A DNA stretch of 37,860 nt from a virus (IMGVR_UViG_2541047762_000007), one strand, 5' to 3'; numbered from the stretch's first letter, positions 1 to 37,860 are shown. Made by a program: numbers and translations. Notes: generated from the sequence alone by a model not told the origin.

Positions 1-933
1 TTATGCCGCCAGCACGCGGTTGCGTCCATCATTTTTCGCCCGATACAAAGCATCATCAACGCGTTTAAACAGTTCATCGATGCTTTCATTTCCTTCGTGA
101 TGCGCCACACCAATGCTGACGGTAAAGCGTGGTAAGCCCGAAATACTCACTTTTGCCACGCTTACGCGGATAGTTTCAGCCAGCGAAAGCGCGGTATCCA
201 GTGGGGTTCTTGGTAGCAATAAGACAAACTCTTCGCCTCCCCAACGAAACACCAAATCGCCTTTGCGAGCGCAACTTTCGAGGGTGCGGGCGAGGGCGCA
301 TAACACCTCATCACCTTTAGAATGCCCATAGAGATCGTTAATGTGTTTAAAACGATCGGTGTCGATGAGCAATAAGCTGTAATCCTGAGCGATGGCGAGG
401 TGCTGCATTTGGCCTGGCTCGGTAATGTGGTAAAACTGTCGCCGATTCAGTAATCCGGTCATCGCGTCATGGTGGGCAGCATGTTCCAGCTGCTCCTCCA
501 GCCGTTTTTGCTCAGTAATATCATGCACAATACATAACATGAGCTTGTCGCCATAAATTTCAATCGGCCCAGCATAGGTCTGCACATGACGAGTCGAACC
601 ATCCGCCAGTTTATGAACAAAATTCAAAGGCTTATGGCCACCGGGTAAATGCGAAATTTCATGCATGATAGGCATGACGCGTCGCCCGAGCATATTTATT
701 TCCCAGGTATGTTTCTGGCACATCGTTTCATGGTTATAGCCATAGAAATTGAGCGCGGCGAGGTTAGCATCGACGATTTGGCCATCTCGTGAGGGGTCAA
801 TCAACAACATTGGTGCAGAGTTAGTCAGAAAAAAGCGCGCATAAAAACCTTGTTTTTTGCGCTGATAATTTGCCGAGCGACTGGCTTTTAAACCCAGCGT
901 TGCCGGTGCTTCGATACCTTCGAAAATAATCAC
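1..933 (-). CDS. PAS-GGDEF diguanylate cyclase (host gene; 5' end may be interrupted by prophage)
   Basis: Translation has the GGDEF active-site motif (RWGGEEF) and a PAS-like N-terminal region. Stop codon at 1..3. First codon is GTG at 931..933, and the frame stays open upstream to 982 with no ATG. Confidence 0.85.
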   Translation of the reverse strand: MIIFEGIEAPATLGLKASRSANYQRKKQGFYARFFLTNSAPMLLIDPSRDGQIVDANLAALNFYGYNHETMCQKHTWEINMLGRRVMPIMHEISHLPGGHKPLNFVHKLADGSTRHVQTYAGPIEIYGDKLMLCIVHDITEQKRLEEQLEHAAHHDAMTGLLNRRQFYHITEPGQMQHLAIAQDYSLLLIDTDRFKHINDLYGHSKGDEVLCALARTLESCARKGDLVFRWGGEEFVLLLPRTPLDTALSLAETIRVSVAKVSISGLPRFTVSIGVAHHEGNESIDELFKRVDDALYRAKNDGRNRVLAA

Positions 934-1034: not shown

Positions 1035-1607
1035 TTACATTTCAGGTTGCGTTATGACAGTCCCAACAGGGTGGTAGCGGTAGATCGTTGACAGTCCAAT
1101 ATCATAGATAATTGCCAGCCGCTTTCTGTCATACCCTTTCTGGAGCAATCTTGCGATCTGCTCATGCTGCTCCTTCGTCAGTTTCGGGCGACGTCCTCCA
1201 ACTCTCCCTTGTGCTCGCGCAGCAGCCAGTCCTGCCAGCGTGCGCTCAACTATCAGTTCACGCTCCATTTCTGCCAGTGCACCCATCATATGAAAAAAGA
1301 ACCTTCCCATCGGAGTGCTGGTATCGATTGAATCCGTCAGACTGCGAAAATTGACACCTTTTGCGCGTAGCTCTTCTGTGAGAGCAATGAGGTGTTTCAT
1401 TCTTCTACCCAACCGATCCAGCTTCCAGACCACCAATGTATCCCCTCTTTTAAGGCACTTTAAAGCGCGTTTCAGGCCTGGTCGTTCCGACTTGGTTCCG
1501 CTCATTTTGTCCTCAAAAATCTGTTCACATCCTGCGCACATTAATGCATTGCGTTGCAAATCTGTGTTTTGGTCATTTGTTGACACACGTATGTAGCCAA
1601 TCAGCAT
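1035..1607 (-). CDS. gin: Gin/Pin/Hin-family serine DNA invertase
   Basis: Translation from the ATG at 1607 (MLIGYIRVSTNDQNTDLQRNAL...GRRPKLT...) closely matches my recollection of Mu Gin and e14 Pin. The ORF-track start at 1736 is probably an upstream artefact. Confidence 0.9.
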   Translation of the reverse strand: MLIGYIRVSTNDQNTDLQRNALMCAGCEQIFEDKMSGTKSERPGLKRALKCLKRGDTLVVWKLDRLGRRMKHLIALTEELRAKGVNFRSLTDSIDTSTPMGRFFFHMMGALAEMERELIVERTLAGLAAARAQGRVGGRRPKLTKEQHEQIARLLQKGYDRKRLAIIYDIGLSTIYRYHPVGTVITQPEM

Positions 1608-1673
1608 TAAAAATACTCCCTTTTGAGTGGTTAAAGTACTGAGATAATGTGGGGAGGATTTGAGAGATAAACG

Positions 1674-1889
1674 TTGGTTTAGGAGAAGGCTCGGCGCTAC
1701 CCGTTGGTGTGCCTGTTCCGTGGCCCACCGCCACACCGCCAGCAGGCTGGTTAAAGTGCGACGGGCGCGCCTTTACAAAAGAACAATATCCTGTTCTGGC
1801 CAGAGTCTACCCGACCCTCCGTCTTCCCGATTTACGCGGTGAGTTTATCCGTGGATGGGACGACGGGCGCAAAGTTGATACAGGACGTA
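1674..1889. repeat. Left inverted repeat of invertible tail-fibre segment (gix-like site at 1664..1687)
   Basis: About 216 bp here is the near-identical reverse complement of 3061..3279. Its outer end (gagataaacgTTGGTTTAGGAGAA) resembles the Gin/Hin crossover half-site consensus. Confidence 0.7.
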
Positions 1890-2191
1890 AGTTGCTGTCC
1901 GCACAAGGGGCAACGCTGTTAAGAACAGCAATGCTGGATTATTATAACCAGGACACTACGGGAACCTCGGGGATAGTCGGCATGGGATTCAACAATGAAG
2001 ATTCCATTACAGACCTTCGTGAGGGCAGCTTTAAAATGCCGGACGGGACAACATTCAGCAATCCTGCCATGGCAATGTCAGACAATGGTATGCAGGCTAC
2101 TATTCTGACCTCTATCAGAAGCGGGTATGCGAAGGGTATCACTGTCAGACCCCGTAGCATTGCACTTAATTACATTGTGAGGGCAGTTTAA
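1709..2191 (+). CDS. Alternative tail-fibre C-terminal cassette (Sv'-like), promoterless in current orientation
   Basis: The first ~60 aa are nearly identical to the region of the 2812..4398 fibre that begins ~150 aa from its C-terminus (PVPWPTATPPAGWL...LRLPDLRGEFIRGWD), then diverge. It lies inside the invertible segment on the opposite strand. Confidence 0.7.
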   Translation: MPVPWPTATPPAGWLKCDGRAFTKEQYPVLARVYPTLRLPDLRGEFIRGWDDGRKVDTGRKLLSAQGATLLRTAMLDYYNQDTTGTSGIVGMGFNNEDSITDLREGSFKMPDGTTFSNPAMAMSDNGMQATILTSIRSGYAKGITVRPRSIALNYIVRAV

Positions 2192-2805
2192 TGAGTAACA
2201 CTGCAGTTCTGGATGAAAACGGTATCGCCACTGTAGCGGGCGATATCACTGTATATCACTATGACGAGGAAACCCGGGAATACACCTCATCCTCTGTGGA
2301 GTATCTCGCCCTTGGGGTGGGTACTCCGGCACATTCGTGCGCCGATGCACCGCCGGAAGCAATTTCGGGTTACGTGGTTTGCCGGACTGCCACGCTGAAC
2401 GGGTGGGAGCATGTGCCTGATCACCGCGGCGAGACGGTATACAGCACGGAGAACGGTAACCCCGTTCTGATTACCCAACCGGGTGATTACCCGGCGGACA
2501 CCACCACAAAACAGCCAGCCACGCCATGGGATACCTGGAACGGTGAGGCGTGGGTAACCGATACTGAACGGCAGCGAGCCGCAGAACTGGAGGTTGCCAG
2601 ACAGCAACGCCAGCAACGGGTGAAACAGGCGATGGCGTCCGTCGATCTTATCAACCTCAAACTGCGTGCTGGTCGCAGTCTGAAACCAGAAGAAACGGCA
2701 AAACTGAACGCCGTGCTGGATTATATCGACGAGCTGAACGCACTGGATATCAGCAAGGCACCTGAAATCAGCTGGCCGGAAGCGCCACTGGCGCTTGCCG
2801 GCTGA
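2191..2805 (+). CDS. Tail fibre assembly protein (Tfa/U-like)
   Basis: Position directly after the alternative fibre cassette (TAATG overlap), ~200 aa, composition typical of lambda Tfa / Mu U chaperones. Confidence 0.75.
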   Translation: MSNTAVLDENGIATVAGDITVYHYDEETREYTSSSVEYLALGVGTPAHSCADAPPEAISGYVVCRTATLNGWEHVPDHRGETVYSTENGNPVLITQPGDYPADTTTKQPATPWDTWNGEAWVTDTERQRAAELEVARQQRQQRVKQAMASVDLINLKLRAGRSLKPEETAKLNAVLDYIDELNALDISKAPEISWPEAPLALAG

Positions 2806-2811
2806 ACGGTA

Positions 2812-4398
2812 TCACGCCGCCCTCACGATATAGTTAAATGCGATATTGCGGGGGCGAGCTGATACATAAGCCCACCAGTCATATCTTTGTGCACCTTTAG
2901 AGGATGCATCAAATATCCACTTTTTGCCATTTATGACCCCCAGTTGATTAGAGGTTAAAGCGTCACCAAATCCGTATTGTGTAGAGCCGAGCGAACTGAT
3001 ATCTCCGGTATTATTATCATCAAAACCGGATACGATAGTCCCTTCCTGAAATGAAAGTACCGTACGCCCGGTATCAACCTTGCGACCACCGTCCCATCCA
3101 CGGATAAACTCACCGCGCAAATCGGGAAGACGGAGGGTCGGGTAGACTCTGGCCAGAACAGGATATTGTTCTTTGGTGAACGTAGCTCCGTTGCACTGTA
3201 ACCAGCCTGCTGGCGGTGTGGCGGTGGGCCATGGAACCGGTACACCAACAGGCAATGCAGAGCCTTCCCCCAAACCAAGGTAATTGAGGACATCTTTTAT
3301 ACTGCCCTTAGCGATAATAGCGCGACCAATAGCTGTAAGGGTTGCCAGCGCTGCGCGGTCTGCTCCGGTAAAATAAGGCAACCGATCTGCTGCAGTGGCA
3401 AGTCCTGCCAGAGCAGTGAGCGTGGCATCTGCCGGTTGTTTTCCGTTTGCCAGATCGTATGCAGCCTTGACGGCCTTTGGTGTGGCGGCCAGCGTTTCAG
3501 ACGTGCTGTTGATGGCGCTGCTCAATTGTACGGTGCCTTTTGCCGTCAGCGAGGCAGCAGGCACTCCCGTTATCTGACTCCACGGGTGAGTGTGGCTGAC
3601 GGGCGCCTTGCCGGCTGCAAGGTCGTATGCAGCCTTGACGGCCTTTGGTGTGGCGGCCAGCGTTTCAGACGTGCTGTTGATGGCGCTGCTCAATTGTACG
3701 GTGCCTTTTGCCGTCAGCGAGGCAGCAGGCACTCCCGTTATCTGACTCCACGGGTGAGTGTGGCTGACGGGCGCCTTGCCGGCTGCAAGGTCGTATGCAG
3801 CCTTGACGGCCTTTGGTGTGGCGGCCAGCGTTTCAGACGTGCTGTTGATGGCACTGCTCAGTTGTACGATCCCTTTACGGGTCGTTGTTGCATCCTGGGC
3901 TGTGTATTTTCCCCGGGCCAGATCATACGCGATTTTCACAGCCTTCGGCGTGGCAGCCTCAGTTTCTGATTGACTGTCCGTGGCACTGCTCAGCTGTACG
4001 GTGCCTTTTGCCGTCAGCGAGGCAGCAGGCACTCCCGTTATCTGACTCCACGGGTGAGTGTGACTGACGGGTGCCTTGCCGGCTGCAAGGTCGTATGCAG
4101 CCTTGACGGCTTTTGGTGTGGCGGCCAGCGTTTCAGAGGTGCTGTTGGTGGCACTGCTCAGTTGGGTGAACCCCTTAGCTGTCAGTGTCGCGTCCGGGTG
4201 GTTACGGGAACGTACGTGTTCAGCCAGTGACTGTGCGGCTTCCTCCGTTTTTTTCTTCAGCCATTTCGTCCTGTTTGCCAGTTGCCGGGGGGCTCGATTT
4301 GATATCCCGTCTGCACCACCCAGAACCGGATCTGATGTCTCCAGTTGATAGATATTTTCTTCCCACTTTTCTGTTTCATTCAGGTTTCCCATAATCAA
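2812..4398 (-). CDS. Tail fibre protein with internal tandem repeats
   Basis: 528-aa ORF with repeated fibre motifs (TAKGTVQLSSAxxSTSETLAATPKAVKAAYDLA, SHTHPW). C-terminal part lies inside the invertible segment. Position matches Mu S. Confidence 0.9.
   Translation of the reverse strand: MIMGNLNETEKWEENIYQLETSDPVLGGADGISNRAPRQLANRTKWLKKKTEEAAQSLAEHVRSRNHPDATLTAKGFTQLSSATNSTSETLAATPKAVKAAYDLAAGKAPVSHTHPWSQITGVPAASLTAKGTVQLSSATDSQSETEAATPKAVKIAYDLARGKYTAQDATTTRKGIVQLSSAINSTSETLAATPKAVKAAYDLAAGKAPVSHTHPWSQITGVPAASLTAKGTVQLSSAINSTSETLAATPKAVKAAYDLAAGKAPVSHTHPWSQITGVPAASLTAKGTVQLSSAINSTSETLAATPKAVKAAYDLANGKQPADATLTALAGLATAADRLPYFTGADRAALATLTAIGRAIIAKGSIKDVLNYLGLGEGSALPVGVPVPWPTATPPAGWLQCNGATFTKEQYPVLARVYPTLRLPDLRGEFIRGWDGGRKVDTGRTVLSFQEGTIVSGFDDNNTGDISSLGSTQYGFGDALTSNQLGVINGKKWIFDASSKGAQRYDWWAYVSARPRNIAFNYIVRAA
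3061..3290. repeat. Right inverted repeat of invertible tail-fibre segment (gix-like site at 3265..3290)
   Basis: Reverse complement matches 1674..1889. TTCCCCCAAACCAAGG at 3265..3280 is the inverted partner of the left site. Confidence 0.7.
3440..4200. repeat. 168-bp (56-aa) tandem repeats within tail fibre gene
   Basis: Three near-identical units are in register at ~3455, 3623 and 3791, followed by two more diverged units. The plus-strand shadow ORF 3436..3969 shows the same period. Confidence 0.85.
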
Positions 4399-6069: not shown

Positions 6070-6407
6070 AGCAGCTCCTGAGTCCGGGTCTGTCCGTCTG
6101 AGCCTTTCCAGCTCACCCGGAGCGTAAGATGTTCGCCGTCGACGGCGGGTTTAACTGACATAAGCTGGCAGCGGGGCTCCCAGCGCCGGATGGCATCGAC
6201 GGATTCGCGCACCACATGCGGAATGGCCCGGTCTACAGGCCAGTCGATATAAAGATGCAGATTGCTGCCGAACTCCGGGCGATGCGGGTCGCTGCCGCGG
6301 GGAGTCCGCAGGATAATTTGAATCGCCTGCCGGATATCATCCAGCCCCCGGACAATTTCGCCGGGAGCCTGCAGAGTTGGTTGCCAGAATACTGAGGTCG
6401 TTTTCAT
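6060..6407 (-). CDS. Baseplate wedge protein (gpW/gp25-like)
   Basis: 115 aa with gpW/gp25-like features (GSDPHRPEFGS...), located upstream of the J-like gene. Confidence 0.75.
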   Translation of the reverse strand: MKTTSVFWQPTLQAPGEIVRGLDDIRQAIQIILRTPRGSDPHRPEFGSNLHLYIDWPVDRAIPHVVRESVDAIRRWEPRCQLMSVKPAVDGEHLTLRVSWKGSDGQTRTQELLWR

Positions 6408-6532
6408 GGAGGCAGTATTGCCCCCGTGCGGGAACGCTGATATTAAAGGGATTTAAAAAAACGTAAAATGGTTGAGCTTATTGAAAAACAGCCAATATTG
6501 TTAATTAATAATCACCTGAAAACGGAGGTTTT

Positions 6533-6755: not shown

Positions 6756-7352
6756 TCAATGAGAATGGTGATTAGAGTTAGAGCCATCAGACAGCATACT
6801 GCCCGTGGCATGGGCATTCCCTTTAATCTCGATATTGCCATGGATGGTCGCGGTAACACCTTTACCACCAGAACCCGCCATGCCTCCTTCGTAAATCAGC
6901 TTTCCCCTGACACGCAGCTCTCCGGTAAGTTCGGTTTCCGGTGCGTCAATCGTGGCTTTCTGTGTTTTCAATACCACATCAGCACCACACTCAATGACAA
7001 TATGCTCAATGCCGCCCCGGATGGTCAGAGTGTGCGTCTTCCGGTTGTAGCTGTACTCTGCACCATCAGCAAACCGGGTTCCCCGGATATTTTTGTCACT
7101 GAACGGTGGTTTATCGACGTCTGAATACACCGCGCCCAGAATAACACCATCCTCGCCGTTGGCATCGAGCAGCACCTCAACCTGCTCCCCCACGTCAGGG
7201 AGCCAGTAATCTTTGTTATCCTGGGTATTGCGCTGCAGCACGTTAAGCCAGTTTGTGCGCAGGTTATCGCATTCAGGCAGACGAACGCGGGCCTGAACCC
7301 TGTCGGCATCAACGGCACTGACCGTACCGACCTGACGAGTGACACCAGTCAT
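6756..7352 (-). CDS. Baseplate spike/hub protein (P2 gpV / Mu gp45-like)
   Basis: 198 aa with glycine-rich, His-rich C-terminus typical of gpV spikes; sits between the gpD-like and gpW-like genes. Confidence 0.75.
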   Translation of the reverse strand: MTGVTRQVGTVSAVDADRVQARVRLPECDNLRTNWLNVLQRNTQDNKDYWLPDVGEQVEVLLDANGEDGVILGAVYSDVDKPPFSDKNIRGTRFADGAEYSYNRKTHTLTIRGGIEHIVIECGADVVLKTQKATIDAPETELTGELRVRGKLIYEGGMAGSGGKGVTATIHGNIEIKGNAHATGSMLSDGSNSNHHSH

Positions 7353-13031: not shown

Positions 13032-13128
13032 GATTGTGCTCCTGTGTAAGTTCAGGGCAGTATGTCGGGAGAAGCGCGTGACGGATATTAAAGGAGATTA
13101 AGAAGAAGGGGCCGGAGCCCCTGTGATG

Positions 13129-18945: not shown

Positions 18946-19160
18946 TTTGCTGTCCCGCGTTATGTTGTCGGAGACAGTTTGTGAGAAATGCAGGCCCGGC
19001 GATTTTAATCTGCTTTAGAAAACATCAGGGGAGAAGGACAGGGAAAGCAATGCGGTGAACCGGAGGCGGTTATAAAACAGAGGCTGTAAAGCCTTTATAA
19101 AGGTAATACAGCCCCTCATTCGCTGGCAATGATTAAATCACCCGCCTGAAGGGAGAAACC
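18946..19160 (-). promoter_or_regulatory. Intergenic region upstream of protease gene; candidate activator-dependent late promoter
   Basis: 215-bp non-coding gap inside an otherwise tightly packed operon, with a -10-like TAAAAT but no good -35. Mu has a C-dependent promoter at the equivalent position. Confidence 0.4.
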
Positions 19161-24368: not shown

Positions 24369-24694
24369 TATTGACCTCCGGTATTGCGGTACTGCTGTAC
24401 CACTTCCAGTTTGTTATAAAGCGCGTCCAGTTTGGCCTCAATGACTGTCTGGCCACGGATATAATCCTCTCGACGGACATAATTCAGCGGTAAATCCGCT
24501 TTAAATCGCATAAATTCTTTTTCCAGCTCGCCCCAGTTGGAGGCGGATTGTTGCAGGGCCTGTTCAAGGGAGGCGAATCGTGCCGCCTGGCGTTCTTCTG
24601 TTTTACTGAACAACCATTTGGCGAGCCCTCCCACAAACCCCATGAAGGTGAGCAGAAAACTCACCACCGTCCAGAATTCAACCTGCAGTGTCAT
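24368..24694 (-). CDS. Membrane-anchored protein (Mu gp25-like; possible lysis accessory)
   Basis: 108 aa, N-terminal transmembrane helix then coiled coil; directly downstream of the spanin gene. Confidence 0.5.
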   Translation of the reverse strand: MTLQVEFWTVVSFLLTFMGFVGGLAKWLFSKTEERQAARFASLEQALQQSASNWGELEKEFMRFKADLPLNYVRREDYIRGQTVIEAKLDALYNKLEVVQQYRNTGGQ

Positions 24695-25341
24695 TTCTGT
24701 AATCCTTCCCGTTCATCCAGTAACGCGTTTATCTGGTTCCGCCAGCGACGACATTGTCCTGCGTTGTCGATGATGTTGGCGAGAACGTCACGCTGGGAGA
24801 CACCCGAATCGCGTAACCGGGTGTCAGTGGTTTCAGGTTGCCCGGTCGCTGTGCCAGAGCGGGTGCCAGCGGCGGCAACTGAGTCTGAATGACCGGTGTC
24901 GACGGATGCGTTGTCATATCCGAGTGCGGCGTTGTACTGGCGCACGAAACCGCGAGTAAACACGCACTCAATGGGATGGCTCTTACCTTTTTCATCAATC
25001 CAGCGCTGTGTGACATCGTTAATTTGCCCCTGTAGTTGTTTATTCCGGCTCTCCAGTTGAGCAATCTGCTCAAGATAACCGGCTTCAGCCCGCTGCCCGG
25101 CGGCCACCTGCTCCTGATACCGTCTGGCCCAGGCCCGCAGCGCAGCATTCTCAAGCGTTGCCTGCTCCGTTTTGTACGCGTCAAATGCTGACTGCAACTG
25201 ACTGAGCGCGGTATCACCGTCACGCTTTGCAGAGTCATGACCACTTCTGTATCCCATGGCATACAGGCCGACCAGAAAGGCATTGATAAGAATGGCCAGC
25301 AGAATGCCGCGCCACGGCAGCTTTTTAACCAGATGCCACAC
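24691..25341 (-). CDS. i-spanin (Rz-like)
   Basis: N-terminal transmembrane segment (ILLAILINAFLVGLYAMGY), then coiled-coil periplasmic domain. Start assigned to the GTG at 25341 with GGAGG upstream; the ORF track extends further. Confidence 0.65.
   Translation of the reverse strand: MWHLVKKLPWRGILLAILINAFLVGLYAMGYRSGHDSAKRDGDTALSQLQSAFDAYKTEQATLENAALRAWARRYQEQVAAGQRAEAGYLEQIAQLESRNKQLQGQINDVTQRWIDEKGKSHPIECVFTRGFVRQYNAALGYDNASVDTGHSDSVAAAGTRSGTATGQPETTDTRLRDSGVSQRDVLANIIDNAGQCRRWRNQINALLDEREGLQK
24729..24995 (-). CDS. o-spanin (Rz1-like lipoprotein) embedded in i-spanin gene
   Basis: Alternate-frame ORF wholly inside the i-spanin gene: MKKVRAIPLSACLLAVSCAS has a lipoprotein signal and lipobox Cys, then a proline-rich mature region. 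Confidence 0.65.
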   Translation of the reverse strand: MKKVRAIPLSACLLAVSCASTTPHSDMTTHPSTPVIQTQLPPLAPALAQRPGNLKPLTPGYAIRVSPSVTFSPTSSTTQDNVVAGGTR

Positions 25342-26065
25342 AACTGCTGCCTCCCCATGTGAGATATCGCGGTGCCAGTTCGCGCAGGATGCGCTGCGGA
25401 TAATGGCGGTTCTCCCGCCAGCTGGCCGCATTGCGTCCGGCATTCACCGTGGCGACATGTCCGAACCAGCGGGTGCTGTCCAGACCTTTCTGTGATGCAA
25501 GCCGCCTGTCCCGTTGTACCCAGCCCAGACCACCGTTATAGCCCGACAGTGTCATGGCCATACGCTCGCAGTCACTGGCGGCGCTGACACGCTGCCACAG
25601 CCAGCGGTCATAGCTGACCAGCGCCCGGATAGCCCATGCCGGATTAAACGGCTCACGACTGCTCAGCATCGGTATCAACTGGCTTATCCAGTCGGCAGTG
25701 GCAGGCATGAACTGCGCCAGTCCCTGAGCGCCAGCCGGCGAGATCGCATCAGGTCGCCAGCCGCTTTCCTGATGCAGTTGCGCGGCGAAATCGGCCACCG
25801 GCGCAGACAGTCCCCATTCAAGCCGGGCATTACGGATCACATCATCGCGATACTGCAGCGCAGCCTGCGGAGGTTGTGCTGCGCATGCCTGGCTGAAAAA
25901 GCCGCCACACCAGAGCAACATTGCGACAAAGAATACCCATGCCATATGAACCAGAAAGGTCCCGGCGCGGACTGACAGGCGTTCGGTTCTGATGAAGACC
26001 CGAAAGGCTTCGAAAGCCAGTTTCAGGGACATGCATACAATCCAGGTGATCTGCGGCCAGTTCAT
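25325..26065 (-). CDS. Endolysin, lytic transglycosylase (SLT) type with N-terminal hydrophobic segment
   Basis: SLT catalytic motif (ESGWRPDAISPAGAQGLAQFMPATA) and an N-terminal hydrophobic stretch (MAWVFFVAMLLWCGGFF). Possible alternative start at 25945. Confidence 0.8.
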   Translation of the reverse strand: MNWPQITWIVCMSLKLAFEAFRVFIRTERLSVRAGTFLVHMAWVFFVAMLLWCGGFFSQACAAQPPQAALQYRDDVIRNARLEWGLSAPVADFAAQLHQESGWRPDAISPAGAQGLAQFMPATADWISQLIPMLSSREPFNPAWAIRALVSYDRWLWQRVSAASDCERMAMTLSGYNGGLGWVQRDRRLASQKGLDSTRWFGHVATVNAGRNAASWRENRHYPQRILRELAPRYLTWGGSSCVASG

Positions 26066-26067
26066 GA

Positions 26068-26418
26068 TTAAAGCCCCATCGCAACAGCCAGGCAGACCGC
26101 TGCAACAATCAGTGCACGGCGGATTAACGCAGCAGAAAACACCAGGTGAAGGCCGGTCTGTACCGGGAAACGCCCTTCAGCCATCAGCCTGTCGTCATGT
26201 TTCAGGTACTGACCGGGACGGGCTTTGGGGAAGAGCGAACGGTCAAGCCAGTAACCCAGCACTGCTGCCAGCGTGATGAGTGCCAGCTTGTAGATCACAA
26301 CAGGCAGCTGCTGTGGTGAGACCAGAGCGATGGTGCCCAGCAACAGCACTGAGGTCAGCAGCCAGCCGCTGAGGCGAGGTTTTTTAACAGGGGGAATGAA
26401 TTTTTTCAGGTTTTTCAT
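26068..26418 (-). CDS. Putative holin (three transmembrane segments)
   Basis: 116 aa from the ATG at 26418 (AAGGAGACACAC upstream), three hydrophobic helices, immediately upstream of endolysin. An in-frame upstream start at 26448/26451 is possible. Confidence 0.6.
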   Translation of the reverse strand: MKNLKKFIPPVKKPRLSGWLLTSVLLLGTIALVSPQQLPVVIYKLALITLAAVLGYWLDRSLFPKARPGQYLKHDDRLMAEGRFPVQTGLHLVFSAALIRRALIVAAVCLAVAMGL

Positions 26419-26548
26419 GTGTGTCTCCTTATCTGGTGGAGACAGCATCACAAATACAGGGCGCGAAGGATTTTAAAGCGCGTTAAGAGAGCCGGGGATA
26501 CGGGATGTGCAGGATAAACGATGAATTATTCACAGAGGAGAATACGAT

Positions 26549-27025
26549 ATGACGCAGACACTGAATCCGGTCATCACTGTCACCGTGTCCGGTCCTGTGG
26601 GCAGCGGTAAAAGTTACATATTGGCGCGGATAGAGGAAGTGGTGAAACAGGAATTCGGAAACAGCGTCATTGTCGATGCTGCTGACGTGGAGAATGAGCG
26701 CCGTATGAATGGCGAAGATCTGACGACCTGGCAGAAGCCACGGGGTGGCACAGTGATCAGGCTAGAGGAATACACGGGACAGGGCCTGTTGTCATACGGC
26801 GAGGAGCGTATCTGTCGGACGAATGAGCTGCTGGATGTTATATGCCCCACGGGCCGGCAACCCTGGATACTGCCCGATGCACTGCATGCCACCATTGCGG
26901 CACTGATGACAGTTTACGATCAGGAGCTGCTCATGAAGGAGTTACGTAAACTCACCGGTCAGCCAACAGAATGTTGTTCGTCTCCGAAGTACGGCAAACA
27001 GGAAAACGCCCCGGATAATCCTTAA
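26549..27025 (+). CDS. Small P-loop (Walker A) protein, unknown function
   Basis: 158 aa with GPVGSGKS Walker A and a possible Walker B (VIVDAAD). Strong SD (AGAGGAG); on the opposite strand to the late operon. Confidence 0.6.
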   Translation: MTQTLNPVITVTVSGPVGSGKSYILARIEEVVKQEFGNSVIVDAADVENERRMNGEDLTTWQKPRGGTVIRLEEYTGQGLLSYGEERICRTNELLDVICPTGRQPWILPDALHATIAALMTVYDQELLMKELRKLTGQPTECCSSPKYGKQENAPDNP

Positions 27026-27044
27026 GATACCTCCTGAACAGAAA

Positions 27045-27060
27045 CAGCCCTGAAGGGCTG
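27045..27060. terminator. Hairpin between convergent genes (likely terminator for 27063..27653)
   Basis: CAGCCC-TGAA-GGGCTG stem-loop; on the minus strand it is followed by TTTCTGTT. Confidence 0.5.
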
Positions 27061-27062
27061 CA

Positions 27063-27653
27063 CTAAAAAAAGAAGTGTATTATTGCCCAAACAGCTATAA
27101 CGATGATTCCCAGCCCAAGAGCCGATTCTAACTTATCTTTGGCAGTCATTTTTACTGTTGTAGCGGGCGCAGGTAAGTCTTGCTGCTGTGGATTTTCTGT
27201 TAGTTGTTTACGAGAAGAAACATCGCCCCTGTTAGTTTGCTTCATGTTGATTACAGATGCGTTATGGGCATTATCAGCAGCAATTGACTGAAGTTTTACA
27301 AAAGTTTTTGAATCTGTTTTAGCCAGAAGTAACCTATTTCCCGTAAACATTGCCTTAAAAGTGATAGTTTTTTTCGTCTTGTCCGCCGCACCAAGCAAAC
27401 CTCCAATGACCAACCCTGCACCACCAAAGATTAATCCACCAAGCAAACCTGCGCCTGCCGCCTTACCTATACGGCTTTCCTCTTCACTATCCGCAAGTTC
27501 AATCGATAAAAGCTCTTCTTTCAGATTTAATACAATATTTTCAGGAAAGCCTTGTTTTGGTTTTTTGGCAAACACGATGGTACCGAACCCCATGCTTGCC
27601 CACCCTTTAGGAAAACTTCCTGCGATAACCTGAATCCCTGCCATGTTCATCAC
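27063..27653 (-). CDS. Glycine-zipper membrane protein, unknown function
   Basis: 196 aa, AT-rich codons, central GxxxG-rich hydrophobic region (AAGAGLLGGLIFGGAGLVIGGLLGAA) and C-terminal transmembrane helix. Confidence 0.55.
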   Translation of the reverse strand: MMNMAGIQVIAGSFPKGWASMGFGTIVFAKKPKQGFPENIVLNLKEELLSIELADSEEESRIGKAAGAGLLGGLIFGGAGLVIGGLLGAADKTKKTITFKAMFTGNRLLLAKTDSKTFVKLQSIAADNAHNASVINMKQTNRGDVSSRKQLTENPQQQDLPAPATTVKMTAKDKLESALGLGIIVIAVWAIIHFFF

Positions 27654-27734
27654 CTTTTACATTAAAATTTCAGAACGCAGCATGATGCCGCCTTTGTCTT
27701 TTTTCTGATCCCATGGTAATTCAGCTGTTATTTT

Positions 27735-28721
27735 CTATTTAAGAATAAAACGGTACTTACTGTCAGGAGTGCTTTGCTGATCAAGTAGCAGTGAACGACA
27801 TGGAGCAGTCAAAACCCGAGCATAACTACCATCAGGGCTTATGTTAATGTAACAAACCTTGCCCTTAACACTATAATTTTCGGGGACGGATGCCTTTGCT
27901 GATACAGTAAATTTAAGGGTATGCCAGCCCGTTTTTTGCTTGTAGCTTGAAACCGAATGGAAATCATCTGAGTACTTATTTAACCCTGGAAACATGCTGC
28001 GCAGTGCGGGGATGGAATCTTCTATTATTTTATCGTTGGTTTTAATGTTAAAAACGCTGGTTTCAGTAGAAGCTACTGCTTTGGCATTTCCCCATTTACC
28101 AGCGAACACAATCATTCCCACGAAAAATATTGCTACAAGAACTAACACTCCCCCCAACACTACTACATGAGGCTTCCGGCTTCTGGTTGGTACAGTTGCG
28201 ACTGATTTTGCACCGCTTTCCGATGGAGGTGATAGAGTTTTACTCTCATCACGAATATTCAGCAGATCATCAAAATAACCAAACACAGCCTGCAACTGCT
28301 CTTTGTCTAGGCCTTTAAGATGGGTTGTACCGAAATGCTTCAGACAGTATCTGTCACGGTCAAGACGATACCCAGGGTCAGTAAGCGCCATTATTTTGCT
28401 GACCAGAAGATTACAGTCCTTCATATTCTGGATCTGTTGTGCATATCTCTGAAGGATCTCAACCGCACCATGATAATCAGCCGCAGTCATTTCATTAACT
28501 GTTTTGGTATTAAGTTTCGTGTGGATCGTCATCCATAGCTCGCGCTTACTTTCCCCCAGATCAACCAATTCATCCATCAATCTGTGTAAATCGCGTTTTT
28601 GCAGCAACGAAATTGGTTGCTGGGCCGAAGGAAGTATGTCAGCAGAATAGTTATGAATGGTAACATCACCGCTGACAACGTTACCCACATCCCCGTTAAC
28701 TGTTTGCTTCTCTTTACTCAT
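27735..28721 (-). CDS. Bitopic membrane protein co-transcribed with repressor (candidate superinfection-exclusion/defence protein)
   Basis: 328 aa, start overlaps repressor stop. Single transmembrane helix (HVVVLGGVLVLVAIFFVGMIVFAGKW) splits an ~185-aa N-terminal domain from an ~120-aa C-terminal domain. N-terminal motif GDVGNVVSGDVTI echoes the repressor C-terminus. Confidence 0.6.
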   Translation of the reverse strand: MSKEKQTVNGDVGNVVSGDVTIHNYSADILPSAQQPISLLQKRDLHRLMDELVDLGESKRELWMTIHTKLNTKTVNEMTAADYHGAVEILQRYAQQIQNMKDCNLLVSKIMALTDPGYRLDRDRYCLKHFGTTHLKGLDKEQLQAVFGYFDDLLNIRDESKTLSPPSESGAKSVATVPTRSRKPHVVVLGGVLVLVAIFFVGMIVFAGKWGNAKAVASTETSVFNIKTNDKIIEDSIPALRSMFPGLNKYSDDFHSVSSYKQKTGWHTLKFTVSAKASVPENYSVKGKVCYINISPDGSYARVLTAPCRSLLLDQQSTPDSKYRFILK

Positions 28722-29179
28722 CTTCTCTTGGTATTTTTGTTCATTATTCCACCTGTTCCTATGGTTACGTTACCTTTGATAACATTCCCCAGAACATCTC
28801 CATGAATAACCTGTTCCGCCCGTTCTCTGGAGGAGCCAGTAGTCAAGGCCGACAAAACTGAACCTTTGACCTGTAATGGTGCCTGCCGGTAGTGCTGCAG
28901 TAACTCCATTTCATCACGTGATAAAGTTATACCTGATGACTCCCCGGTAAGAATGAACTGTACATTGGCCCCAATTCTTGCAAAGGCTGCAAGTAACTCA
29001 CCTCCGGGAACAGCAACCCCTCGTTCATATTTCCCCCACATTTCTCTTGAAACGCCACAAAGGGCTGCTACTTCAGCCTGCTTGAGTGATAACCGCGAAC
29101 GCTCAGCTTTGAACCGCGACGCGCAAAGAGAATCAAAATTCACATAAACCTCATTGACAATGAGAACAATAGTTCTCAT
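28718..29179 (-). CDS. XRE/Cro-C1-type HTH repressor (immunity repressor candidate)
   Basis: HTH segment LSLKQAEVAALCGVSREMWGKYERG; divergent from the early operon. True start may be the GTG at 29143, since operator-like palindromes cover 29150..29179. Confidence 0.75.
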   Translation of the reverse strand: MRTIVLIVNEVYVNFDSLCASRFKAERSRLSLKQAEVAALCGVSREMWGKYERGVAVPGGELLAAFARIGANVQFILTGESSGITLSRDEMELLQHYRQAPLQVKGSVLSALTTGSSRERAEQVIHGDVLGNVIKGNVTIGTGGIMNKNTKRR

Positions 29180-29182
29180 AAT
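29150..29182. promoter_or_regulatory. Operator-like palindromes overlapping early promoter
   Basis: Perfect palindromes CTCATTG-A-CAATGAG (29150..29164) and ATGAGAAC-AATA-GTTCTCAT (29160..29179). Consensus -35 TTGACA at 29154..29159 and CATAAT at 29177..29182 with 17-bp spacing, facing the Ner/Cro-like gene. Confidence 0.6.
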
Positions 29183-29229
29183 CTATCACATATAAAACAA
29201 ACATCATTGCATCAACAAAGGAGACAACA

Positions 29230-29418
29230 ATGACTTCCGAACAAGTTAAAAATCTCTTCCGTCAGCGTGGTATCACGTTTACCCGCTGGGCCGAAGAACA
29301 CGGCTACAGCCGCAATGAGGTCTATCGTGTTCTCAATGGACAGACCAAAGCTCGTTACGGCAAAGCCCATGAAATTGCCGTAAAACTGGGATTAAAACCC
29401 ACGTCAAATGCGGCATAA
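29230..29418 (+). CDS. Ner/Cro-like small DNA-binding early regulator
   Basis: 62-aa basic protein, first gene of the rightward operon, divergent from repressor; SD AAAGGAGA upstream. Confidence 0.65.
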   Translation: MTSEQVKNLFRQRGITFTRWAEEHGYSRNEVYRVLNGQTKARYGKAHEIAVKLGLKPTSNAA

Positions 29419-37057: not shown

Positions 37058-37499
37058 ACAACGTCTTATCCAGCTCATTCATATTGCCCGTAATGAACTG
37101 GGTATGGATGAAGACACCTACCGCCAGATGTTACAGGGGCTGACCGGTAAAGCCTCAACCAAAGGAATGGATACCACACAACTAAACTGCGTGCTGGAAT
37201 CCATGAAAAGGAAAGGCTTTCGCGTTAGGCCTGCAGGAAAAGCCAGCTCCGGTTTACCGCTGGATAACCATCCGCAGTCCAGGAAAATCCGTGCGCTATG
37301 GCTTGAAATGGCTGCTGCCGGCATTGTTCGTGACCGTTCAGAAAATGCATTAGCGCGGTGGATCAAGCGGGAAACGGGCATCAGCGCCCTGCGCTGGCTC
37401 AATACTGAACAGGCAAGCAGTGTTATTGAGAAACTGAAGAAGTGGCAGCGCAGAGCTGCGGGAGTAAAACATGAGCGACCTGAATCAGTTTCGAAGTAA
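37047..37499 (+). CDS. gemA: GemA-like protein (Mu gp16 family)
   Basis: Start at ATG 37047 after AAGGAG; pattern TKQRLIQLIHIARNELGMDEDTYRQML...TGK.S matches the GemA family; immediately precedes the Mor-like gene as in Mu. Confidence 0.65.
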   Translation: MMTKQRLIQLIHIARNELGMDEDTYRQMLQGLTGKASTKGMDTTQLNCVLESMKRKGFRVRPAGKASSGLPLDNHPQSRKIRALWLEMAAAGIVRDRSENALARWIKRETGISALRWLNTEQASSVIEKLKKWQRRAAGVKHERPESVSK

Positions 37500-37860
37500 A
37501 GGGCCGGAACTCCTGGTGGAACTGGCACAGCATACCTCTGAGACCGTTCGCGAGATTATTGATATTGAGCCCGCAATTGCCGACCAGATTGGTCAGGCCG
37601 TCGCGAACCGCATGATGCAGGTCTGGGGCGGGCAAAACGTTTATTTCCCGATGGGCATGGTATGGAAGGTCAGTCAGCGCGACCGGGAAATCTTCAGGGA
37701 GTTTAACGGACGTAACCACCATGAACTGGCCCGCAAATTTGGTGTTTCGCTTCAGTGGGTCTACAGCGTGGTTAAGCGGGTAAGAAAAGAAGAACTGGAT
37801 CGGATGCAGGGCAAGCTATTTGCTGATGAACCCGATGTAGATACGGAGAAAAAAGAGTAA
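37471..37860 (+). CDS. mor: Mor/C-family transcriptional activator (likely Mor)
   Basis: C-terminal pattern VYFPMG..W..SQRDREIFREFNGRNHHELARKFGVS..WVYSVVKR matches the Mu Mor/C family. Stop codon is at the last three bases of the window. Confidence 0.8.
   Translation: MSDLNQFRSKGPELLVELAQHTSETVREIIDIEPAIADQIGQAVANRMMQVWGGQNVYFPMGMVWKVSQRDREIFREFNGRNHHELARKFGVSLQWVYSVVKRVRKEELDRMQGKLFADEPDVDTEKKE

Follow-up and report, generated by a model that had tools for sequence, protein, structure and literature searches.

A phage-restricted mini P-loop gene opposite the lysis operon of an Escherichia coli BcepMu-like prophage and its predicted Mor-type promoter

What does a small P-loop protein do when its gene stands opposite the lysis genes of a prophage, and when is it made? 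The question is raised by an open reading frame (ORF) on the plus strand at 26549..27025 of IMGVR_UViG_2541047762_000007, a stretch of 37,860 nucleotides that was analysed whole and is called the window below. The window is an Escherichia coli prophage of the BcepMu-like transposable type. A first-pass annotation of this DNA had described the ORF as an orphan P-loop gene, placed so as to be expressed in the lysogen and possibly coding for a toxin, an antitoxin or a defence component. We found that the ORF is a true coding gene, accessory to the prophage, in the phage-restricted and uncharacterised family phrog_3787, and that the window holds a shortened allele of this known family, not an orphan toxin or defence gene. 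Our reading as a whole is that of a deletion-shortened phrog_3787 gene which codes for a mini P-loop joined to one helical module, would be switched on by a Mor-family activator in lytic growth, and whose product may bind a ligand in a dispensable conflict role. We hold this combination to be slightly more probable than improbable. The main value of the locus lies in its mini P-loop domain and in the bidirectional Mor promoter predicted for it, rather than in the truncated allele.

The gene and its family

The ORF starts with ATG, codes for 158 amino acids (the stop codon is included in its coordinates) and carries the Walker A motif GPVGSGKS at residues 15-22 (26591..26614), exactly where it had first been placed. 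Its own strong Shine-Dalgarno sequence, GAGGAG (26535..26540), lies 8 nt before the ATG, in a CA.A.AG block that is kept in the intergenic alignment described below. The divergence from the lysis operon was also borne out. The holin (PF13272 / Holin_2-3; 26068..26418), which is the first gene of the lysis/late arm, the SLT endolysin (25325-26065) and an Rz-like spanin (24691-25443) are all on the minus strand.

The orphan status did not survive comparison. The protein matches the phrog_3787 profile with E 1.3e-107 (359.7 bits), its residues 1-157 corresponding to profile positions 1-157 of 242, and over residues 1-157 it has 93% identity with the 242-aa protein of Escherichia phage PhiKM (XRL29432.1) and of strain EC958. 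The N-terminus MT(Q/H)TLNP is kept in all homologues. Pairwise comparison of codons 1-136 with four diverged alleles gave dN/dS values of 0.15-0.36, alike in the N-terminal half and in the helical part that follows. The profile match, the identity to PhiKM, the conserved N-terminus and these dN/dS values put the ORF far beyond a chance reading frame. A 644-bp query over the gene was found in 571 of 5426 complete E. coli genomes, about one in ten, including the ST131 strain EC958, and it was chromosomal every time. In Salmonella, the proteins fall into more than 100 clusters (at 90% identity); they are 160-290 aa long and combine the N-terminal domain with varying helical modules.

The exhaustive profile search covered 1.84 billion representative proteins and gave 67 matches. 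All 45 remote representatives tested match phrog_3787, and no Pfam family rose above threshold in them save in one, a metagenomic protein of 159 aa (P0086) with a PG_binding_1 domain (E 4.7e-15) N-terminal to the mini P-loop. This is the sole fusion to a known Pfam domain seen here. A profile scan of genome contigs with the close-family alignment gave no relative; a second scan with a Salmonella-type alignment of the N-terminal domain gave one real relative together with matches confined to the P-loop stretch. The family was found in phages and prophages exclusively.

As in PhiKM and EC958, the window copy stands in the slot divergent from the holin, but it lacks the last ~85 residues of the full-length architecture (~242 aa), which form a helical module called D below, and it ends in 5 out-of-frame residues. 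The slot itself is an accessory position, as had been proposed. The region is variable, the gene is not in Burkholderia phage BcepMu, and Klebsiella phage KP12 has another gene there. The literature on the protein accessions and on E. coli Bcepmuvirus prophages contained nothing concerning this gene. As phrog_3787 has no assigned function, membership gives no mechanistic explanation.

RefSeq supplies names that would provide one. The 158-aa product WP_000149906.1 is called 'ABC transporter ATPase' and fragments of the gene are called 'KAP family NTPase', while 'P-loop NTPase fold protein' is also in use; WP_000194951.1 and WP_000149906.1 both fall within phrog_3787. Together with weak NCBIfam and Pfam matches, these names suggest that the protein is an ABC transporter ATPase, a KAP NTPase or a piece of a housekeeping kinase. 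We regard this explanation as already refuted at the sequence level and give it almost no weight. The best NCBIfam matches reached 12-14 bits against cut-offs of 204-875, and they and the Pfam matches aligned residues ~2-59 alone; for the ABC transporter names the cut-offs were 220-875 and the alignment spanned residues 2-58. The sequence has no LSGGQ signature, Q-loop or H-loop. The KAP NTPase family (PF07693) scored 14.5 bits against a cut-off of 20, over residues 3-43 only. Homology to a housekeeping kinase, which the first-pass annotation had named as a finding that would count against its own reading, was looked for and rejected, since these matches too fell below threshold and did not extend past the Walker A stretch. 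A PDB profile search with the family returned only Walker A-level alignments, and the restriction of the family to phages and prophages also speaks against such an origin. The RefSeq names of a gene so common in E. coli and in many Salmonella are thus misleading.

The mini P-loop, its helical modules and the deletion

The one part of the protein that the whole family shares is the N-domain (residues 1-78, 26549..26782). Relatives outside E. coli match profile positions ~1-75 only, and beyond them there is unrelated sequence or nothing. The shared unit comprises a hydrophobic strand, GPxGxGKS, a helix of the form xVLxxIExxLxxEFG and then a second strand; a loop containing E-R/K and W..P leads to the third strand, which closes with Glu. 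Across 75 homologues, G15, P16, G20, K21, S22, I28 and E74 are invariant or nearly so. In the window protein as modelled, strand 8-13 is followed by Walker A, helix 21-39, strand 40-42, a loop with E50/R51 and W61, and strand 68-74, which ends in E73-E74. Dozens of stand-alone proteins of 74-90 aa consist of the N-domain alone and stop 1-3 residues past the Glu of strand 3. Their genes are intact and form part of closely packed phage operons, for example in early regions or in a P2-like tail operon between gpU and gpX.

With the 75-sequence alignment, AlphaFold gave a mean pLDDT of 65 and a pTM of 0.38; the block means of the N-terminal half were mostly 58-80, and the 41-60 loop stood at ~45. 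The model made with only 16 close sequences (pLDDT 47.7) was unusable. Among predicted viral structures, the best match was a 72-aa protein. In the 75-sequence model, a Walker A of the form GxxxxGK[ST] lies between strand 1 and helix 1, as in the P-loop fold, and the segment VIRLEE places the near-invariant E74 at the end of predicted strand 68-74, which would be the position of the Walker B acid. Instead of the five parallel strands between helices that define the fold, three strands are predicted by this moderate model. The N-domain therefore looks, in the model, like a cut-down P-loop unit that has Walker A and a Walker-B-like Glu and is without strands 4 and 5 and the base-recognition element. 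With ~70-75 residues, it is unusually small, and it is not in Pfam. To our knowledge, all P-loop NTPases characterised so far are larger than such a unit would be.

The closest neighbours of the N-domain in fold and sequence are kinase-type P-loop NTPases (thymidylate, cytidylate and APS kinases; UreG), which likewise have GPxGxGKS between a strand and a helix and an acid ending a later strand. In its very small size and its strand-P-loop-helix build, the N-domain also resembles the designed P-loop prototypes, one of which (PDB 6c2u) is among the PDB sequence matches. However, those are laboratory constructs and have no homology to the natural family past the motif. Designed prototypes of this kind are small strand-P-loop-helix polypeptides that are reported to act as oligomers and to bind phosphate ligands and nucleic acids (10.1101/2020.07.30.228619; PMC10119929). 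The mini P-loop may bind a nucleotide or another phosphate-bearing ligand, probably as an oligomer or with its helical partner modules, and we put this forward less firmly than the promoter assignment given below. If confirmed, an autonomous P-loop of ~70 residues would be a natural counterpart of the designed polypeptides that model the origin of NTPases.

Beyond the N-domain, BLAST and alignment delimited four helical modules, A, B, C and D. The window protein consists of N, module C (residues 79-137, 26783..26959) and a linker stub, and the model places helices of module C at 83-98, 110-122 and 125-136. Module C is homologous to the module at the C-terminal end of the Salmonella and Hafnia proteins, whose order is N+A+B+C. 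In E. coli, the common protein (242/247 aa) has the order N+C+linker+D and a form of 141 aa has N+C; in Salmonella, a 144-aa form has N+D. A distant BcepMu-like locus (L015) encodes module D separately, in a gene that follows on the same strand. As module D is fused in one lineage and a gene of its own in another, the modules apparently work together. Pfam and PHROG scans of the partner modules, and of the neighbours lost from the window, gave 'unknown function' families only, and PDB searches with modules A-B-C and C-D gave Walker A-level matches or none. If confirmed, the joining of a constant head to shuffled modules would mark an arms-race gene.

Several variants of this scheme were met in the course of the comparison. 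In L015, an 8-bp tandem duplication, CCAGATGA CCAGATGA (7248-7270 of that locus), splits the N+A+B+C gene into ORFs of 88 and 161 aa with an ATGA overlap; the unsplit form of 246 aa is found in a Hafnia assembly (P0167). We rejected a three-gene operon for L015, because the 88-aa/161-aa split is this duplication and only module D is truly separate. A protein of 2018 aa with 13 repeats matching module C (P0054) was treated as a spurious repeat match. In Klebsiella phage KP12 (L017), the slot divergent from the holin holds an unannotated 107-aa ORF (4046-4369, minus strand in the locus), which has the same promoter and 5' untranslated region (UTR) upstream and overlaps the annotated convergent gene KP12_281. 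Its product is a module that is also C-terminal in some Salmonella mini P-loop proteins (P0041, P0058, P0059). A 182-aa E. coli allele (P0027/P0030; L007, L008; ~59 member sequences) has in-frame internal deletions of ~residues 52-87 and 96-124, by which the N-domain beyond strand 2 and most of module C are gone and module D is kept.

The allele comparison shows that the 158-aa form of the window descends from the common 242/247-aa form by a deletion of ~850 bp. The junction, CAGGAAAACGCCCCGGATAATCCTTAA, occupies the last 27 nt of the ORF (26999..27025) and creates the terminus ...APDNP*. There the P-loop gene, at about codon 154, runs into the end of a 72-aa gene (phrog_4490) in a different reading frame; in the 247-aa arrangement, that gene sits ~850 bp downstream. 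The parental deletion sites are two imperfect 20-bp repeats. Module D, a convergent 134-aa phrog_2266 gene and most of the 72-aa gene were taken out. The observation that the ORF lacks a partner on its own strand holds for the window, where the next plus-strand gene is a ner-like gene at 29230 and the three genes between are all on the minus strand. However, given the deletion, the lack of a partner is a secondary condition. A related locus (L009) has the same junction followed by the old downstream sequence, and its homology with the window stops right after the stop codon. In the window, the region behind the stop codon was later replaced by a low-GC cassette linked to the repressor (GC 40-45% against ~54% in the P-loop gene), an arrangement that ~96 of 634 genomes carry.

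It is possible to see in this allele a functionless remnant, that is, a decaying leftover of the 247-aa gene that is open only since the deletion is recent. The loss of module D and the out-of-frame 5-residue tail fit this idea, as do the many frameshifted or partial copies in circulation, the 182-aa allele, and the dispensability of the gene for this phage type. But the same junction occurs in diverged backgrounds, the window and L009 differing over codons 1-136 with a dS of 0.34 and a dN/dS of 0.28, values to which recombination may have added divergence. The largest 90%-identity cluster of the 158-aa form holds 369 member sequences, and in other phages the N-domain alone is an autonomous protein. 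Moreover, the natural 141-aa N+C form ends at the Salmonella module boundary, so that N+C looks like a viable architecture. We consider the remnant unlikely, though it is the likeliest of the alternatives discussed here. For the gene as a whole, the alleles show diversification by module shuffling under purifying selection, with frequent decay.

A predicted activator site shared by two divergent genes

The first-pass annotation had concluded from the orientation of the gene that it is positioned for expression in the lysogen. A promoter scan found no sigma-70-type promoter and no -35 element between the holin and the P-loop ORF. An extended -10 promoter of the sigma-70 type was rejected, the TG being misplaced and not conserved. 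The head-to-head position of the two genes, with 129-132 bp between them, is invariant among E. coli, Salmonella and L015, a Hafnia-like locus. The alignment of this gap (E. coli alleles, Salmonella L014, L015) has four kept blocks: TGGAGACAGCAT, TTTTAAAG.GC.TTA, GCAG.AT and the Shine-Dalgarno sequence.

Within the gap lies the dyad TTAAA-GCGC-GTTAA (26473..26486, centre 26479.5; consensus in the alignment TTAAA-N4-(T/G)TTAA), a predicted Mor-family activator site common to both divergent promoters. The predicted -10 of the P-loop gene is CAGGAT (26510..26515, plus strand), with a predicted start near 26522, and that of the late lysis promoter is GATGCT (26444..26449, minus strand), which is followed by GTCTCC. 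Each hexamer occupies nucleotides 31-36 from the dyad centre, its first base being 30.5 bp away on either side, and both retain the critical -10 positions A2 and T6. A dyad ~43 bp upstream of the start together with a -10 and no -35 is the geometry of a Mor/C-type promoter. The candidate activator is a Mor-family protein of 129 aa (PF08765, E 1.3e-43) encoded at 37471..37860 on the plus strand.

In phage Mu, Mor and C dimers use a 16-bp dyad, which in the Mor site consists of 5-bp arms and a G/C-rich spacer; its centre is at -43.5, and the promoters concerned carry a -10 and no typical -35 (PMC4390567, PMC2582627). The site described here resembles Mu Pm, Plys, PI, PP and Pmom in its 5-bp arms and G/C-rich spacer ~42-43 bp upstream of the predicted start, in the -10 without a -35, in the several such promoters that head late operons, and in the Mor-family gene that ends the early operon. 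It differs in that the spacer is 4 bp (a 14-bp element) instead of the 6 bp (16 bp) of Mu, and in that a single site seemingly serves promoters in both directions; no such case is described for Mu.

The dyad pattern has 8 matches in the window against 0.7 expected by chance, and 4 of them are in intergenic gaps of the late arm. These four late dyads (TTAAA-N4-TTTAA type; 6443-6456, 13088-13101, 19005-19018 and 26473-26486) are at the heads of late transcription units, the centres of the first three being 6449.5, 13094.5 and 19011.5. On the late, minus-strand side of every dyad, nucleotides 31-36 form an nAnnCT hexamer, which at these three sites is AATACT, CATACT or CAAACT. The late-side hexamers are followed by GyCTCC, save that CATACT at the 13088 site has the variant GCCCTG instead. 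By analogy, the set looks like the Mor-dependent late promoters of this phage, comparable to the four of Mu. A hexamer with A2 and T6 on the opposite side, CAGGAT, is present at the lysis site only, and none is found at the other three. At 6407 there is also an ATG 6 nt past the late hexamer, which suggests a leaderless late mRNA.

The element on the P-loop side is conserved. CAG(G/A)AT is at a constant offset in all seven related loci, including KP12 with its different coding sequence behind it, and it is the best-kept block between the dyad and the Shine-Dalgarno sequence in E. coli, Salmonella, L015 and KP12. In Burkholderia phage BcepMu, the holin is preceded by CTAAA-GCCG-ATTAA, 23 nt and CAAGAT, that is, by the same geometry. 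The symmetric -10 hexamers around a Mor-type dyad, the repetition of this dyad at the other late promoters and the absence of a sigma-70 promoter together predict lytic-phase expression. Thus, on promoter geometry, the gene is probably Mor-dependent and late and not expressed in the lysogen, contrary to what its orientation had suggested. One face of a bidirectional Mor-activated promoter would serve the P-loop gene and the other the holin and the late operon, and the P-loop protein would be made in lytic growth. If confirmed, the use of one Mor-type site by both divergent promoters would widen the Mu paradigm of how late genes are activated, and it would mean that a gene opposing a late operon should not be assumed by default to be expressed in the lysogen.

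The opposite view is that a constitutive promoter in 26452-26548 drives a lysogen-expressed toxin, antitoxin or anti-phage defence component, the NTPase acting alone or with its minus-strand neighbours. The gene does run opposite to the late arm, and it adjoins the low-GC cassette of two membrane proteins that is linked to the repressor and probably lysogen-expressed. Faint matches also point this way, namely mad8 (E 0.0016, 16 bits), the best in the defence systems of PADLOC-DB v2, where all others had E of 0.005 or more in the P-loop stretch only, Zeta_toxin (PF06414; E 0.073, 12.9 bits against a cut-off of 22.3) and BrxC_BrxD (E 0.046). However, every match in Pfam, NCBIfam and PADLOC is sub-threshold and mostly confined to the strand and helix of Walker A, so that the assignment to a toxin, antitoxin or defence component finds no family behind it. 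For the Zeta and AbiEii-type toxin kinases (PF06414 / PF13304), an adjacent antitoxin would be expected, whereas the P-loop gene has no co-oriented neighbour in the window and its neighbours vary among carriers. The neighbouring genes themselves had no significant match in PADLOC-DB v2, the best being PDC-M19B (E 0.014) for the 328-aa protein of the cassette. The intergenic region lacks a sigma-70-type promoter, and its sole conserved promoter-like element has late-promoter geometry. No early-operator motif is common to this region and the early promoter region. A terminator hairpin with a T-run on the minus strand only (27044..27061) separates the two units, and it closes the repressor operon just short of running antisense into the P-loop gene. 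The cassette is recent and absent from most carriers; therefore it is not a conserved partner, which counts further against lysogenic expression as a defence unit. We judge this possibility improbable.

Two further features of the gap concern the holin. A lambda-S-like dual-start holin with a conserved upstream ATG, in frame in the window (26446-26448), was rejected, since this ATG is out of frame in L005 (manual alignment count) and coincides with the predicted -10. An inverted repeat GTCTCC-N9-GGAGAC (26423-26443) overlaps the Shine-Dalgarno sequence of the holin, and its GGAGAC arm (GTCTCC on the minus strand) falls in a conserved 12-mer beside the predicted -10. A holin transcription start near 26437 would leave one arm transcribed, and the repeat may be a discriminator element or form an RNA hairpin. 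No Rfam RNA family was found within 26000-29400.

Possible roles and the prophage around the gene

Our best guess at the function of the protein, which is of low confidence, is a late accessory factor that binds a nucleotide or phosphate ligand in host takeover or counter-defence. Its role would be dispensable and fast-evolving, in a conflict between phage and host or between phages, and would not be that of a toxin, an antitoxin or a transporter ATPase. Three associations are consistent with a conflict role: the Salmonella clusters, which number over 100, are divergent and have their modules shuffled, the orphan Dam methylase in the neighbouring slot of most carriers, and the stand-alone homologues that occur among methylases, RecT, NinG, a Tad2-like gene and repressors. 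The locus also resembles the moron and anti-defence hot spots of Mu-like phages, having a fixed slot with a conserved promoter and 5' UTR, interchangeable and fast-diversifying coding content, and the orphan Dam methylase beside it. It differs from them in having no homology to known anti-defence proteins, and its predicted late timing would be unusual for counter-defence.

Several points weigh against the combined reading of a late, Mor-activated ligand binder. The promoter assignment comes from sequence geometry and conservation alone. CAGGAT is a poor match to TATAAT and would be a weak -10, and the half of the dyad on the P-loop side is less conserved than the late half and is not accompanied by the GyCTCC of the late side. 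Since two RNA polymerases cannot simultaneously use one activator site at ~-42.5, bidirectional use is only inferred. The structural model is moderate and has no strands 4 and 5 or base-recognition element, so that nucleotide binding stays a prediction; some family members have a degenerate Walker A, SGAESSGKN. The 182-aa allele remains open despite having lost most of the domain after strand 2, which fits weak constraint, and so do the many frameshifted fragments of the gene in circulation. Nor does anything tie the protein directly to a defence or counter-defence system.

The position of the gene suggests another role as well. The protein, or competition of the two promoters for the shared activator site, could tune holin expression or endolysin action and so regulate the timing of lysis. 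The invariant head-to-head arrangement with the holin and the dyad common to both promoters would agree with this; one remote homologue is fused to PG_binding_1, which is typical of endolysins, and another lies between lysis-like genes and an HNH-terminase pair. But most stand-alone homologues are in early or accessory regions or in the tail operon and not beside lysis genes, BcepMu and KP12 lyse without the P-loop gene, and the fusion is a single case. The protein sequence has no membrane segment and no signal peptide. We therefore see little prospect for a lysis-timing regulator.

Returning to the late conflict factor, a bolder form of it can be put forward, which we regard as speculative and rather doubtful. 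It is that the family represents an autonomous natural mini P-loop of three strands and one helix, with a Walker A and a final Glu, working alone (as in the proteins of 74-90 aa) or as the constant head that binds a nucleotide or phosphate ligand. In BcepMu-like prophages of Enterobacteriaceae, this head would carry shuffled helical specificity modules, be fired from the second face of a bidirectional Mor-dependent lysis promoter and serve as a late conflict or host-takeover factor, for example a binder of a nucleotide signal.

The surroundings of the gene follow the plan of a transposable prophage. The late arm on the minus strand runs from the holin through the terminase, a Mu-type portal and the head and tail genes to an invertible tail-fibre segment. 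The early arm, on the plus strand from 29230, contains the ner-like gene, an IclR-type helix-turn-helix (HTH) gene, DUF3102, a DDE transposase, an AAA+ MuB/ExeA-like gene, Gam, GemA and Mor. Between the repressor and the ner-like genes is a strong early promoter, TTGACA-17-CATAAT (29154-29182; 11 of 12 positions), overlapped by the palindrome GAGAACAATAGTTCTC (29163-29180), a probable operator whose motif is absent from the P-loop intergenic region.

The low-GC cassette (27063-29179, minus strand) is in an operon with a different repressor (153 aa, HTH_31) and ends at the terminator beyond the P-loop gene. Its 328-aa protein has a Flk_N-like N-terminus and one membrane segment (phrog_10002), and the start of its gene overlaps the repressor stop; the 196-aa protein is a glycine-rich membrane protein (phrog_12025). 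The likely candidates for lysogenic expression and superinfection exclusion are these cassette genes and not the P-loop gene. In BcepMu, too, the repressor is followed by a gene for a membrane protein (gp18).

The window ends exactly at the Mor stop codon and so does not include the right end of the prophage. On the left, a PAS-GGDEF diguanylate cyclase gene (1-933, minus strand) is presumably a host gene, which would put the left prophage end at ~940-1030. Next to it is an invertible tail-fibre region like the G segment of Mu (1035-3281). It begins with a Gin/Hin-type invertase (Resolvase and HTH_7; 1035-1736, minus strand), and inverted repeats of 229 nt at 1671-1899 and 3053-3281, which are 86% complementary, enclose a tail-collar fragment and a tail-fibre assembly gene on the plus strand.

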